NCBI GenBank assembly: GCA_030390025.1
Contig: CM059437.1
Span: 72,168,001-72,232,000, forward strand
Reading direction: 5' to 3'
DNA from: Squalus acanthias
Lineage: Eukaryota
Length of the DNA stretch: 64,000 bases
Shown: positions 3,169 to 22,148 of the stretch, piece by piece
Layout of the letters: the number at the start of each line of letters is the position of its first letter
How positions within the stretch are numbered: position 1 is the stretch's first letter
Notes under the pieces: model-generated
What the model was told of the DNA's origin: nothing
Databases searched by the model: none
Seen by the model: the letters and a program-made list of their open reading frames with translations, nothing else
Position numbers and translations under genes: made by a program

Positions 3169-3385
3169 TTTACCTTTACTCTGCCTATAAAGGACAACTG
3201 CTCGTGGAAAAAAAGCTGCAAAGTACCATTTTGTGTTCCGGAGTGCAAGTTTAGGCCGCTCTCCAGTCAGCAACAAGAAGAGTTTCAAAGTTTACCCTTT
3301 CCAACGTACATCTGTAAAAACTAGTCAGGTTCACATTTTCTTTTTTACGAGCTACAAATGCAGGTCAGATTCAGATTGTGAATGC

Positions 3386-3680
3386 GAGTCAGGTTCACAC
3401 CCTTCCATGTACGGGCTGTGAACGCAAGTCAGATTCACACCCTTCCATGTACGGGCTGTCAACACGAGTCAGATTCACACCCTTCCATGTACGGGCTGTG
3501 AACGAGAGTCAGATTCACACCCTTCCATGTACGGGCTGTCAACACGAGTCAGATTCACACCCTTCCATGTATGGGCTGTCAACACGAGTCAGATTCACAC
3601 CCTTCCATGTACGGGCTGTGAATGAGAGTCAGATTCACACTCTTCCATGCATGGGCTGTGAATGAGAGTCAGATTCACAC
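3386..3680. repeat. 40-bp minisatellite, about 7.4 copies
   Basis: Unit gagtcagattcacacccttccatgtacgggctgt(g/c)aac.., period 40. Confidence 0.95.
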
Positions 3681-4099
3681 TATTGTTGAGGATCGGGAAG
3701 TTGGTAATCTACCCCCATGGAAATAAAAATCAGGCAGTTTCTAGAACAGACGGCTGATCTGCAACACCAGTTTTACACCTGGGGCAACAAGTTGAAAATC
3801 TGCCCCATGGCAGCCAAGTGCCAGCTTGCCTCAGTGGCCAGCCTCTCTCACAGGTTCCCCCCAACTATACCCTCCCTCACCTACACAGGTCAGGCCTATC
3901 ACTGGTAAAGAGAAAGGTTAGAAGAAAGATGAAAAGAATGTTGTCCAACATCTACATGTTTAAATACCCGTGCAAGTCAAAACTGGTTTCCATATCCCTA
4001 TCAATACTGCTTATTACATGCGGTCATGTAGTGGCTCACACTGATTTTCTTGCTCCCAATGTTCTCCTTGCTGGATGGCAATGTCTCATGCTGGGGTAC

Positions 4100-5160: not shown

Positions 5161-5642
5161 CCAGCCCACCCACGTACACACACCCTCCCTCCCCGACCCA
5201 GGACACGCCCACCCACCCACACACACACCCACCCTCCCTCCCACACCAATCCAGGGCCCACCCACCCTCCCTCCCTCCCCGACCCAGGGCACGCCCGCCC
5301 ACCCTCCCTCCCACACCAATCCAGGGCCCACCCACCCTCCCTCCCTCCCCGACCCAGGGCACGCCCACCCACCCACACACACACCCACCCACCCTCCCTC
5401 CCCGATCCAGGACACGCCCACCCACCCACACACACACCCACCCTCCCTCCCTCCCTGACCCAGGGCACGCCCACCCACCCACACACACACACACCCTCCC
5501 TCCCTCCCACACCAATCCAGGGCTCACCCACCCACACAACCTCCCACACCCCCAGCACCCAACCACACCCATCCACCCACCCGTTCACACTCATCCAGTA
5601 CCCACCAACCCCCACCCCCCCAACTCCCAGGGCCCACCACCC
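5161..5642. repeat. C-rich compound minisatellite (G-rich on the transcribed strand)
   Basis: Alternating units ccctccctccccgacccagggcacgcccacccacccacacacac and ccacaccaatccagggcccacc. It produces the spurious P/H/T-rich and G/W/V-rich ORFs. Confidence 0.95.
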
Positions 5643-12581: not shown

Positions 12582-12773
12582 TCAGCCTTGGCTCAGTGGT
12601 AGCACTCTCTCGTCAGAGTCAAAAGGTCATGGGTTCAAGCTACACCCTAGTACATAATCCAGGCGGACACTTCAGCGCAGTACTGAGAGACAGCTGCACA
12701 GTCAGAGGTGCTGTCTGTCAGCTGAAAGGTTATCAGAGGCCCACCTGCCCTCTCAGGTGAGCGTAAAAGATCC
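12582..12773 (+). mobile_element. tRNA-derived SINE, 5' half, cut off by a Gypsy LTR
   Basis: A box tggctcagtggt, B box ggttcaagc; colinear with the full copy at 17781. Confidence 0.85.
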
Positions 12774-12967
12774 TGTGGTAACACAATCCAGCTTCCTGTG
12801 ACTCGAACTTTATTGCATCACTTCCTGTGATTAGTCCAGGATAAATACTGGACTGATCAGTTGGATCCTGGAGAGGCATAGAGTAAGACCTCTTTTGTAT
12901 GTAGCACCTTTTTAGTTGATTAAAGCTTACTTTAAGTTCACCACGCATAAGGCTCATTCTTACGACA
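12774..12967 (+). mobile_element. 5' LTR of a Gypsy retrotransposon (194 bp)
   Basis: TG...CA ends with terminal inverted repeat TGTGGTAA/TTACGACA, ATTAAA poly(A) signal at 12919-12924, directly upstream of a gag ORF. Confidence 0.8.
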
Positions 12968-13045
12968 ATTTAATCAACTTTGAAAAACTTCGCACTCAAA
13001 CTTTTTGGACGAACTCGGAACTAAGGATCCAGGGAATCACCCATC

Positions 13046-13764
13046 ATGGAAAACATCCTTAAACCATCGCGTCTTGACTTGGACCCAAACACCCCAGCAG
13101 CCGGTAAGGTGTGGAAACACTGGTATCGCACGTTTGACAATTTTCTTGAATATTGCAAGGCTGATGATGACTCAAAGTTGCGGATACTCATCAACTGTGT
13201 CACCCCGAATGTATTTCAGTATGTGGAGGAATGGGGCAGTTACGAGGAGGCAATTCGGACGCTTAAGAGACTATATACTAAGACACCGAATGAGGTCTAT
13301 GCCAGACATCTACTAGCTACAGCCCAACAAGGGCCGGAGGAATCCATTGATAAATTCCTCCAAGAGCTTTGCAGACTTAGTATGGACTGTAACTTTCAGG
13401 CGGCCTCAGCTGAGCTGTACCGTGAAGAAATGATCCGTGATGCTTTCATCTGCGGGCTTGCCTCCCCATTTATACGCCAGCGTCTACTGGAAAGTAAGAC
13501 ACTTGAGCTTCAGAGAGCTTATGACATGGCTTGCTCTCTAGATCTGGCAAAAAAGAAATGCAGACCTTTATACAGTGCCCAGACCTCGGTCTACTGCCTT
13601 AACTACAGTCAGGCAATTTAAGAGGCCACAGGTGAACTCTATTAGGGAGGTCTTTATCCCTGACGATCAATCTGATGACTTCACTGATGAAGAGGATGAT
13701 GACCCCACTGTGGCAGCCTCTTGGCAATCTAAGAAATGCTTCTTTTGTGGTGATGAGTTTCACT
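13046..13764 (+). pseudogene. Gypsy gag, frameshifted and 3'-truncated
   Basis: Peptide MENILKPSRLDLDPN...ARHLLATAQQGPEESIDKFLQEL...IRDAFICGL. One extra A near 13549-13558 shifts the frame, which continues to a partial zinc knuckle CFFCGDEFH cut by a LINE. Confidence 0.88.
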
Positions 13765-14840
13765 GACTGGAGTCATACCAAGCACAAAGGAAGATGGTTG
13801 TGGTGGTTGAAGGTCAATCATCACAGCCCCAGGGCATCGCTGCAAGAGTTCCTCAGGGCAGTGTCCTAGGCCCAACCATCTTCAGCTGCTTCATCAATGA
13901 CCTTCCCTCCAACATAAGGCAGAAATGGGGATGTTCGCTGATGACTGCACAGTGTTCAGTGCCATTCTCAACTCCTCAGATAATGAAGCAGTCCATGCCC
14001 GCAAGCAAGAAGACCTGGACGATATTCAGGCTTGGGCTGATAAGTGGCAGGTAACATTCGCGCCACAGAAGTGCCAGGCAATGACTATCTCCAACAAGCG
14101 AGAGTCTAACCACCTCCCCTTGACATTCAATGGCATTACCATCGCTGAATCCCCCAACATCAATGTCCTGGGGGTCACCATTGACCAGAAACTTAACTGG
14201 ACCTGCCACATAAATACTGTGGCAACAAGAGCAAGTCAGAGGTTAGGTATTCTGTGGTGAGTGTCTCACCTCCTGACCCCCGAAAGCCTTTCCACCATCT
14301 ACAAGGCACAAGTAAGAAGTGTGATGGAATACTCTCCACTTGCCTGGATGAGTGCAGCTCCAACAACACTCAAGAAGCTTGACACCATCCAGGACAAAGC
14401 AGCCCGCTTGATTGGCACCCTATCCACCACCTTAAACATTCACTCCCTCCACCACCGGCGTACTGTGGTTGCAGTGTGTACCATCTACAAGATGCACTGC
14501 AGCAACTCGCCAAGGCTTCTTCGGCAGCACCTCCCAAACCCGCGACCTCTTCCACCTAGAAGGACAAGGGCAGCAGGCGCATGGGAACACCACCACCTCC
14601 AAGTTCCCCTCCAAGTCACACACCATCCTGACTTAGAAGTATATCACCGATCCTTCATCGTCGCTGGGTCAAAATCCTGGAACTCCCTCCCTAACAACAC
14701 TGTGGGAGTACCTTCACCACACGGACTGCAGCGGTTCAAGAAGGCGGCTCGCCACCACCTTCTCAAGGGTAATTAGGGATGGGCAATAAATGCTGGCCTT
14801 GCCAGTGACGCCCAGATCCCATAAACGAATAAAAAAAAAA
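13765..14840 (+). mobile_element. CR1-group (Zenon-like) LINE, 5'-truncated, with poly(A)
   Basis: RT motifs VPQGSVLGP, FADD, YKAQVRSVMEYSPLAW; ends cccataaacgaataaaaaaaaaa. Confidence 0.9.
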
Positions 14841-17780: not shown

Positions 17781-18250
17781 GTGTCAGTCATGGCTCAGTG
17801 GTAGCACCCTTGCGTCTGAGCAGACTGGTGAGCTCAAGCCCTACTTCAGAGACTTGAGCACAAAATCCAGGCTAACACTCCACTGTAGTACTGAGGGAGT
17901 GCTGCATTGTCGGAGGTGCTGTTTTTCGGATGAGCTGTTAAACCGAGGCCCCGTCTGCCCTCTCTGGTAGACGTAAAAGATCCCACGGCACTATTTCGAA
18001 GAAGAGCAGGGGAGTTCTCTCCCTGGTGTCCTGGCCAATATTTATCCCTCACCCAACATAGCAAAGAAACCAGATTATCTGGTCATTTGTTGCATTGCTG
18101 TTTGTGGGACCTTGCTGTGTGCAAATTGGCTGCCTGTTTCCTACATTACAACAGTGACTACACTTGAAAAGTACTTCACTGGCTGTAAAGCACTTTGGGA
18201 TGTCTTGGGGGCGTGAAAGGCGCTGTATAAATACAAGTCTTTCTTTCTTG
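17781..18250 (+). mobile_element. Full-length tRNA-derived SINE with L2-like tail
   Basis: Pol III A box tggctcagtggt, degenerate B box, tail ggcgctgtataaatacaagtctttctttc. Confidence 0.9.
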
Positions 18251-19070: not shown

Positions 19071-19810
19071 AAATATCCATTGCCTTTTACTCCTAAAGTG
19101 TCAACTTGGCACCACTCTGCTTACTATTTCAAAACCACCCAAAACAGGCAGTAATTCAAAGGAAAGTCCAGCCCACTGTCACCTCTGCTACATATTGCTG
19201 TGGCCCTTTTTTTCTGGCTTTTCTTGAAACAGAGAAAGTGTAAATAGCATCGAGGTGAAAGTGTTCAAATAGGTGCTGATTTCCTATTAAAAAAAAAATC
19301 CTAACTTGGAAATGCAAATATGGTTTGCACAATGACTAAGGGGATAAAAACTGCAGCACATTCGGGAAACCATACTTTTGGGTTTCCCGTCCATAATGCT
19401 TCCACCAGAGGGTGGGAGAAAATTGGAGGGGGTTGGGAAGGTCACACAATTCATTTAGAATGAGTTGGTCTGAAAATCACTTTATGTAGCTGCTTTCATA
19501 TTCAATTTAAATATTGCAGAACATTGATATTATAAATCAATTACCTACTCTGTAAGTCTTGCCCATCTAGAACTATACTTCCTTTATTACTATTGATCCA
19601 GGGTCAAACCGAGAAAGACATCTTTCACTTTAGCAAGCTCCTGTGTGGAATAAAAGCTCTCGTGAGATAATTGGATAATGGTTACTGTTGCAAGATCGAA
19701 TGGCTGTGATATAGGATATTTGAGCAAAATGAACTCTTTCAAAAAAAAACAAATCTGGCTCTGAATTGATCCAGTGAATAGCTGAGTCATGCCAAACAAA
19801 AGGTGGTTCT

Positions 19811-22148
19811 GGCCTCTTACCCTCTCTAGATCTTTTCATTGCTAACTGCCGGCATGACATCGGCCGTCTCAATTTCTCTGCTCCCCTCACTCACTCCAGC
19901 CTACCTCCCTCTGAACTTGTAGCACTCCATTCTCTCCGATCCAACCCTAACATTGTCATTAAACCTGCTGACAAGGGTGGTGCTGTTGTTGTTTGGCGAA
20001 CCGACCTCTACCGTGCGGAGGCTGAACGCCAACTCTCTGACACCTCCTCCTACCTCCCCCTGGACCATGACCCCACTACCAAACATCAAGCAATCATTTC
20101 CAAGACTGTCACAGACCTCATCTCCTCTGGAGATCTTCCCTCCATGGCTGTCAACCTCATAGTCCCCCAACCCCGCACAGCCCACTTCTACCTCGTTCCC
20201 AAGATCCACAAACAGGGCTGCCCTGGTTGACCCATCGTTTCAGCCTGTTCTTGCCCCACGGAACTGATTTCTTCCTATCTTGACTATTTTTTCTCCCCTT
20301 GTCCAGTCTCTTCCCATCTACACTCGAGATTCTTCTGACGCCCTCCGCCACTTTAACAGTTTCCAGTTTCCTGGCCCCAACAGTCTCATTTTCACTATGG
20401 AAGTCCAATCCCTCTACACCTCCATCCCCCACCAGGACGGCCTGAGGGTGCTCCGCTTCTTCCTCGAACAGAGGCCCAACCAGTTCCCATCCACCACCAC
20501 CCTCCTCCGCCTGGCTGAACTTATCCTCACATTGAACAACTTCTCCTTTGACTCCACTCACTTCCTCCAAATTAAAGGTGTTGCTATGGGAACCCGCATG
20601 GGCCCTAGCTATGCCTGCCTTTTCGTGGGATATATGGAACATTCTTTGTTCCAGTCCTACTCAGGTCCCCTCCCTCACCTCTTTTTCCGGTACATTGATG
20701 ACTGTATTGGTGCTGTTTCCTGCTCTCGCCCAAACTAGAAAATGTTATTCACTTTGCTTCCAATTTCCACCCTTCCCTCACTTTCACATGATCCATCTCC
20801 GACTCTTCCCTTCCCTTCCTCGACTTCTCGGTCTCCATTTCTGGAGGGGTAGACTATCGTCAAACATCCACTACAAGCCCACTGACTCCCACAGCTACCT
20901 GGACTACACTTCCTCCCACCCCGCTTCCTGTAAGGACTCTATTCCATTCTCCCAGTTTCTCCGTCTTCGCCGCGTCTGTTCTGACGAGGCCACCTTCCAT
21001 ACCAGTGCTTCCGACATGTCTTCCTTTTTCCTCAACCAAGGATTCCCCTCTACCGTGGTTGACACGGCCCTTGACCGTCTCCGTTCCATTTCCCGCACTT
21101 CTGCTCTCACCCCTTCCCCTCCCTCCCAGAACCACGATTGGGTTCCCCTTGTCCTCACCCTTTCACCCCACCAGTCTCCACATTCAACGGATCATCCTCC
21201 GCCATTTCCACCACCTCCAGCGTGATCCCACCACCAAACACATCGTCCCCTCCCCCCACTTTCAGCATTCCGAAGGGACCGCCCCCTCTGCGACACCCTG
21301 GTCCACTCCTCTATCACCTCCAACACCCCTTCCCACGGCACCTTCCCGTGCAAGCGCAGGAGATGCAACACCAGCCCTTTTACCTCCTCCCTTCCCACTG
21401 TCCAGGGCCCCAAACACTCCTTCCAGGTGAAACAGCGATTTACTTGTACTTCTTGCAATTTAGTATACTGTATTCGCTGCTCACGATGCGGTCTCCTCTA
21501 CATTGGGGAGACCAAACGCAGATTGGATGACCGCTTTGCGGAACACCTCCGTTCAGTCCATAAGCATGACCCCAAGCTTCCGGTCACCTCTCACTTTAAT
21601 TCTCCGCTCCACTCCCACTCTGATCTCTCTGTCCTCGGCCTCTTACACTGTTCTAACGAAGCTCAACGTAAGCTCAAGGAACAGCACCTCATCTTTCGAT
21701 TAGGCACTTTACAGCCTTCTGACTCAACATCGAGTTCAACAATTTCAGACTATAACCTCGACCCCCATGTTTCCTTTTCTCTCTCACATGGCAGCTGTTG
21801 ATGATTCTGCCAGTGCCATTTACACCTCATCTAGACTCATCTTTTGTTTCTTAACTTGTCCCATTACCATCTCATTTTGCCTTGCACCATCATCCCTTTT
21901 GTCTTTTAATCTCTCCTGCCTTCCATCCCATCACAGACCTTCCCTTTGTTCTTTCCTCCCCTCCCCCCTTTCCCTGCCCCACACTTGCTTAAAAATCTGT
22001 TACTTCGCCAACTTTTCCCAGTTCTGACAAAGGGTCATCGACCTGAAACGTTGACTCTGTTTCTCTCTCCACGATGCTGCCTGACCTGCTGAGTGTTTCC
22101 AGTATTTTCTGTTGTTGTTTCAGATTTCCAGCATCGCAGTAATTTGCT
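19811..22148 (+). mobile_element. Penelope-like retroelement (RT plus GIY-YIG endonuclease), 5'-truncated and frameshifted
   Basis: RT motifs QIKGVAMGTRMGPSYACLFVG and FFRYIDD; HYKPTDSHSYLDY; GIY-YIG NLVYCIRCSRCGLLYIGETKRRLDDRFAEH; terminal repeat carries a mutated hammerhead (22020-22056). Confidence 0.95.

Follow-up and report, generated by a model that had tools for sequence, protein, structure and literature searches.

The question raised by this locus is how a Ty3/Gypsy retrotransposon begins reverse transcription when the sequence behind its 5' LTR is complementary to the LTR itself. In the window, by which we mean the whole stretch of 64,000 nucleotides from Squalus acanthias that was analyzed, the 11 nucleotides AGTTGATTAAA at 12914-12924 are the exact reverse complement of TTTAATCAACT at 12969-12979, and extension on either side gives a mismatch. 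The LTR terminates with ...ACGACA at 12967 and is followed by an A at 12968. A TGG tRNA-type site is absent after the LTR in the window copy as well as in every positive relative described below. From the composition of the sequence, 1.1e-4 exact matches are expected by chance. An earlier sequence-only reading had drawn attention to the 11-nt self-complement, to the missing TGG and to an ATTAAA within the pairing 11-mer. The coordinates turned out to be exact, both duplex arms were intact in 30 of the 30 closest copies, and the hexamer was indeed found within the 11-mer (Table 1). The locus is what is left of the 5' end of a young Ty3/Gypsy element in which the site behind the LTR pairs with the element's own LTR, and we consider it probable that the clade primes reverse transcription from a cut 5' piece of its RNA in the manner of Tf1.

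The window element is the 5' end of a young and abundant Ty3/Gypsy family. It matches full-length copies at 99.3% up to 13763, where the similarity stops, and the remainder of the element is absent from the 64-kb window. The LINE fragment that follows appears CR1-like from a reading of its sequence, a label that stops short of clade level. A search of the own genome yielded 1,094 candidates, and the 40 that were scored were all 99-100% identical; a 23-nt LTR probe had 4,069 matches in the genome. Twenty copies were taken whole. They are 4.3-4.9 kb long, their two LTRs differ at 0-2 sites, and all 20 contain both LTRs, a polypurine tract (PPT) followed by AA before the 3' LTR, and an identical primer site. 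A perfect 5-bp target duplication was found by script in 18/20, and an unbroken ORF of 1,316-1,325 codons in 5/20. The single gag-pol ORF encodes two CCHC knuckles, protease, reverse transcriptase (RT), RNase H and integrase. The PR-RT-RNase H-IN order of the family protein (Pfam) is the Ty3/Gypsy order, and its nearest solved relative is Ty3 Gag-Pol (E 4e-57). The gag part had no Pfam family match, and NCBIfam profiles were uninformative. Two sister families are present in the same genome. Three contig sets from RNA runs cover the element; they possibly represent DNA, and contigs cannot show starts.

Table 1. Features of the element and its immediate surroundings (positions in the window).
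Feature	Position	Strand	Basis or remark
SINE-like host repeat, insertion target of the element	12582..12773	+	71% over 203 nt to 17783-17982
5' LTR, TG...CA, 194 bp	12774..12967	+	limits fixed by 20/20 two-LTR full-length copies
TATA-like box GATAAATA, putative	12840..12847	+	74 nt upstream of 12914
Arm pairing with primer-binding site; inferred 3' part of self-primer (10 pairs)	12914..12923	+	complementarity and covariation
ATTAAA, poly(A)-signal-like hexamer, candidate	12919..12924	+	inside duplex
Inferred first base of cut template, last base in minus-strand strong-stop DNA	12924	+	break points of faulty copies
Small predicted hairpin directly 3' of inferred cut	12925..12937	+	centroid fold
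2-nt spacer AT, LTR end to primer site	12968..12969	+	mirrors AA between PPT and 3' LTR in full-length copies
Primer-binding site	12970..12979	+	pairs with 12914-12923 and does not match the CCA end of a tRNA
gag-pol 5' part, 718 nt	13046..13763	+	one-base frameshift near 13549
LINE 3' fragment with A-rich tail, truncates the Gypsy element	13764..14840	+	RVT_1 match E 1.6e-7

Several further features were seen in the window and in the family. Minisatellites lie at 1090-1633, 3337-3720 and 5167-5590 of the window, with periods of 34, 40 and 33-53 nt, respectively, and broken RT and GIY-YIG-like reading frames at 19778-21801 probably belong to a Penelope-like element. At G000 C1:562300-575063, four LTR matches with a spacing of 4,247 bp form a tandem array of elements that share LTRs. 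Seven loci (L159, L165, L177, L184, L186, L189 and L199) represent a subfamily in which a copy of LTR nt 1-40 is found before the polypurine tract, about 30-70 nt upstream of the 3' LTR. Among 121 proteins, the RT active-site motif (P0001 residues ~629-632) reads YxDN in 90 cases and YxDD in another 24, and the family is evidently active.

Covariation between the primer site and the LTR, which the sequence-only reading had singled out as informative, was quantified across relatives. The metagenome set comprised 80 loci, 32 of which contained the gag 5' end and 31 of which were testable; the 48 loci without the gag 5' end and L068, with too little upstream DNA, were left unscored. A blind scan searched for a 10-pair stem beginning 2 nt after any CA, and shuffled upstream regions served as control. 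Perfect 10-bp pairing was found in 21 of the 31 testable loci, always in the same register (LTR end + 2 nt), and six further loci had 9-9.5 pairs. The four misses each had just 93-121 nt upstream of gag, and one of them has its partner in the 3' LTR. Among the shuffled controls, 10 pairs were obtained in 0/285 and 9 pairs in 17/285. Wherever both LTRs were complete, the CA picked by the scan was the LTR end. Sister families of the same genome showed perfect pairing in 4/5 loci.

The pairs were then compared base by base in 20 representatives, which were chosen among the positives and stem in many cases from few assemblies, so that they are not 20 independent tests. Duplex positions 1-10 were Watson-Crick paired in 198/200 cells; positions 3-8 and 10 vary on both arms, and position 9 is always G-C. 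The 15 distinct decamer pairs scored 9.87 with their own partner versus 6.39 with swapped partners, a value reached in 0 of 100,000 permutations. Two nearly identical elements, L055 and L080, differ by one matched change present on both arms. In the relatives, pairing exceeded background up to position 15 (0.55-0.90 vs 0.33-0.41) and was at background from position 16. Several loci share one assembly, and therefore the number of independent families is below 20. Judged by these alignments, the pairing is conserved through compensatory change across the clade. In Ty3, according to the accessible text of PMC7472051, the primer site is inherited and not copied from the primer; hence, the matched changes observed here may reflect selection, copying, or both. 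Minimum-energy folds of the 20 representatives contained the central duplex in 16 cases and lacked it in four. Stems inside the loop were common, a consistent third duplex with the leader was not found, and in the folds of many relatives a hairpin or stem begins just 3' of the position equal to the inferred cut. L064 (178-256) has a leader hairpin that is flanked by a duplication of the LTR end and the primer site.

Next, the clade was placed. At E 1e-50, 967 relatives were retrieved; the 120 listed are 46-80% identical, and the named hosts among them are crustaceans, a tunicate and cnidarians. No chromodomain was found in the family protein at E 0.1, nor in the precomputed Pfam lists of 120/120 listed relatives, and the GPY/F module was absent in 121/121 proteins. 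Viral contigs contained no relative. An RT-RNase H tree was calculated from 70 rows (42 clade members and 28 others), none of which is a named element. The tree is unrooted and from a quick search, its in-group was set by identity, and it omits L129 together with 78 out-group segments that were nearly redundant. All 42 clade rows lie on one side of a branch with 100% SH-aLRT support, and the only two chromodomain-bearing RTs, from 44 out-group proteins among 47 proteins scanned, fall within the other 28 rows. The proposal that the element is no chromovirus thus held in an RT phylogeny, albeit an unrooted one with no named rows, in which the clade is split from the two chromodomain-bearing RTs. 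As a sequence-based result, the tree argues against chromovirus membership, while it stops short of naming the clade or proving an independent origin. The mechanism appears Tf1-like, but the element is not a member of the Tf1/sushi group. With its short LTRs, one compact ORF, a pair of CCHC knuckles and hosts among aquatic invertebrates, the clade presumably resembles Mag or Cigr-1. The comparison with the Mag lineage and the Cigr-1 and MolGy clades of metazoan Gypsy elements (PMC6238403) was based on such general features, and the accessible part of PMC6238403 nowhere mentions a PBS or primer.

Faulty integrated copies allowed the cut site to be approached. Among the 4,069 LTR matches of the window family, 25 loci lacked the A at LTR nt 150 (12923). 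Twelve of these loci, representing seven elements, were rearranged there, and 13 had point changes. At the control positions, rearrangements were found in 0/1 loci at nt 151, in 0/4 at nt 144, and in 1/14 at nt 140, where only C/G variants were scored and the single case was a deletion in the 3' LTR only (L208); the 13 loci at nt 149 comprised one 7-nt and one 1-nt deletion as well as 11 point changes. Five of the seven rearranged elements carry an identical deletion in both LTRs (nt 130-150 or ~17-150), as a wrong first strand transfer would give. Five of the seven break points carry 3-8 nt of microhomology, so that they do not fix the exact base, and the repeated deletions may descend from one another. 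In L178 and L181, nt 151-194 are joined to the U3 end without homology, and the joint runs through two bases that match the AA beside the polypurine tract. In the sister family, 14 loci were picked for their right-hand junction only, and five of them have a fixed left junction, which lies in four cases at the base equal to 12924 and in one case two bases further (determined by eye). These five loci are solo-LTR-like, bear target duplications and restart the U5 copy at five different U5 points; four of the five join without homology.

The primer site itself is also the start of aberrant products. Six loci of the window family differ at the base after the primer site: three run on as the LTR reverse complement, one jumps into gag using a 7-nt microhomology, and two have point changes. 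A run-on probe in the sister families had retrieved the 14 loci mentioned above, which continue from the primer site as the LTR reverse complement. These 3 + 14 run-on copies indicate that DNA terminating at the primer site does indeed anneal with the 11-mer. Judging by the break points, the last base of minus-strand strong-stop DNA is likely the complement of A12924. Together with a single cut, this end would place the primer end at 12923 and leave a spacer of 2 nt; the U3 end independently shows a 2-nt extension, the same length as the predicted spacer. Integrase end processing removes two bases. Thus, the 11-nt complement of the sequence-only reading stands, whereas its primer length probably does not: a cut at 12923|12924 would give 10 pairs and a spacer of 2 nt. 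We also considered whether untemplated additions make nt 150 a hot spot of point mutations. It stood out against nt 144 and 151 but not against nt 149 (13 vs 11 loci), and the idea was rejected except for two elements changed in both LTRs. No matching primer-site change was found among about 14 5'-LTR variants at nt 144-150. In L158/L159 and L165/L166, both LTRs lack the paired arm while primer site and leader are normal, and such copies would be dead ends unless primed in trans. L141 (1319-1668) and L145 (1288-1677) are integrated fold-back products consisting of LTR, primer site and inverted LTR, with two U3 ends.

From the observed pairing, its fixed register, the compensatory changes and the shared break point, we infer the following cut and extension steps. 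The RNA of the element would fold such that 12914-12924 pairs with 12969-12979. One cut at 12923|12924, presumably by the element's RNase H in analogy to Tf1, would create a 3'-OH on an RNA end held to the primer site by ten pairs. Synthesis by reverse transcriptase would then proceed through the 2-nt spacer, U5 and the remaining part of R as far as A12924, and the resulting 46-nt strong-stop DNA would jump to the 3' R, which would end slightly past the ATTAAA. Several observations count against this scheme. Point changes at nt 150 do not stand out against those at nt 149, the 5'-LTR variants at nt 144-150 show no matched change in the primer site, and most break points carry microhomology. 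The fold of 12914-12990, which includes the duplex, has an ordinary overall stability (z -1.54; 21/200 shuffles as good), and some folds of relatives lack the duplex or a consistent third one, as described above.

The length of the primer depends on where transcription begins. Candidate starts are 12914, which is initiator-like, ~12909, where pairing reaches its outer limit across the clade, and ~12870, which lies 30 nt downstream of the TATA-like box; the corresponding candidates for the primer length are 10 nt, ~15 nt or ~55 nt. In two sister families, a canonical TATAAATA occupies a comparable place and precedes the paired arm by 90-92 nt. The TATA-like box of the window copy points to a start near 12870; the primer would then have a long unpaired tail, unlike that of Tf1. 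The inverted-arm end of L136, 29 nt past the TATA-like box, was tried as a start and rejected, as it falls at an 8-nt microhomology. Four inserts of a sister family, in L149, L152, L153 and L157 (around 1437-1690), have LTR nt 161 as their first base, terminate with an inverted LTR and bear flanking target duplications; nt 161 could mark the 5' end of an RNA or else a site used cryptically by integrase. A probe at sister-family nt 159 yielded one deletion in 24 loci. Because the nt-161 site resembles an integrase end and nt 159 gave 1/24, no start was derived from them. An excess of junctions was not found at LTR nt 140 of the window family or at nt 159 of the sister family.

Three other explanations were weighed against priming from a cut 5' piece. 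Self-priming might use the 11-mer of the 3' LTR, at the far end of the RNA or on a second RNA, and 12924 would then be the transcription start and not a cut. Four faulty loci from three events (L146, L147 and L154/155) run through the whole inverted 3' LTR and on into the polypurine tract and the internal region, as copying of a long 3' primer would produce, but re-annealing of plus-strand strong-stop DNA to an RNA, at its 3' LTR, yields these products as well. We regard a 3'-LTR primer as unlikely, since it needs a start beside the primer 3' end by coincidence, which a single cut explains for free, and a cap-derived extra C is absent at four clean junctions (L144, L156, L178 and L181). In two elements whose LTRs both differ at nt 150, the primer site has no matched change, which also speaks against it, although this test is weak.

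The poly(A)-like hexamer lies within the duplex and could by itself account for selection on pairing; the only role of the duplex might be to hide the poly(A) signal of the 5' LTR or to shape the leader, with priming by something else. In most families, the last bases of the paired arm form a poly(A)-like hexamer, and the partner of the arm is found only at the RNA 5' end. However, every positive keeps the register of LTR end + 2 nt, many families have a non-canonical hexamer (GTTAAA, TTTAAA, ACAAAT), and some families have a separate AATAAA. As, in addition, no alternative primer site exists and the break points at 12923|12924 are left unexplained, hiding as the sole function seems improbable to us, although the duplex may well serve this purpose in addition to priming. 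Priming by an internal tRNA fragment or another host small RNA, with the LTR match being secondary, has a parallel in the half-tRNA priming of Copia lineages, as described in the accessible part of PMC6317226. Yet the primer site has no TGG, each of the 15 decamers fits its own LTR and not those of the others, and L055 and L080 changed in a matched fashion at one base, so that we give this explanation hardly any credence. Self-priming without tRNA in a Gypsy lineage outside the chromoviruses is thus the likely reading of these sequences. This core of the earlier proposal is upheld by covariation, break points, the lack of a chromodomain and the RT tree, its 11-nt primer is probably to be replaced by one with 10 pairs, and its start at 12914 is one of several candidates.

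In Tf1, RNase H cuts between bases 11 and 12 and so releases the first 11 bases, which are the paired ones (PMC7175516, accessible text), and a 'pretzel' of three duplexes has been described (bioRxiv 10.1101/2022.12.06.519325, in the part available). The present clade resembles Tf1/Tf2 of Schizosaccharomyces pombe, Tj1 and Tosmo in that the primer site directly follows the 5' LTR, is complementary to the LTR over about 11 nt, and belongs to an element with a single ORF and the Ty3/Gypsy domain order. Unlike Tf1/sushi elements, it has no chromodomain and neither a GPY/F nor a Tf2-type SH3 module, contains two CCHC knuckles and mostly YLDN in place of YxDD, and its RT is on a branch of its own. 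Unlike in Tf1, the inferred cut lies one base inside the duplex, the start is possibly upstream of the paired arm, and the third duplex of the 'pretzel' is not clearly present in the folds. The named hosts of the relatives are crustaceans, tunicates and cnidarians, in contrast to S. pombe, the host of Tf1/Tf2. Self-priming has also been predicted for plant Tcn1 chromoviruses and the Copia lineage TAR (Houba/Osr-1) from primer-site/LTR matches of at least 10 nt (PMC6317226, accessible sections). These are likewise predicted self-primers, but with plant hosts and from another clade or superfamily, and in the same sections the predictions come without break-point evidence for the cut site.

As far as the accessible parts of the sources go, self-priming is tied to Tf1/sushi, Tcn1 and the Copia lineage TAR (PMC6317226, PMC3601003, PMC6934838, PMC5006619, PMC4600332, PMC5341516, PMC7175516, PMC5371799, PMC7472051, bioRxiv 10.1101/2022.12.06.519325). 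In the literature that was searched, which excluded most subscription papers, Repbase reports and GyDB pages, no description of self-priming in a metazoan non-chromovirus Gypsy clade was found. Self-priming in the TAR Copia elements implies that the trait has arisen outside the Tf1/sushi group. We tentatively raise the possibility, which is open to considerable doubt, that this widespread animal Gypsy clade evolved self-priming independently of Tf1/sushi, with a primer end that overlaps the poly(A) signal, with one duplex both hiding that signal in the 5' LTR and yielding the primer, and with a primer that is perhaps a longer capped piece (~15/55 nt) paired at its 3' end only.

If self-priming holds true, there would be a second, chromodomain-free clade that extends from cnidarians to this genome of vertebrate size. 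Priming without tRNA would then be a trait that evolved repeatedly, and the cutting of an RNA duplex by RNase H could be studied in a second system. Such elements would offer 3' tRNA fragments no tRNA primer site to target. Their faulty integrated copies would represent a record of reverse-transcription intermediates, and as these copies map the cut to one bond, they make a bench test specific.
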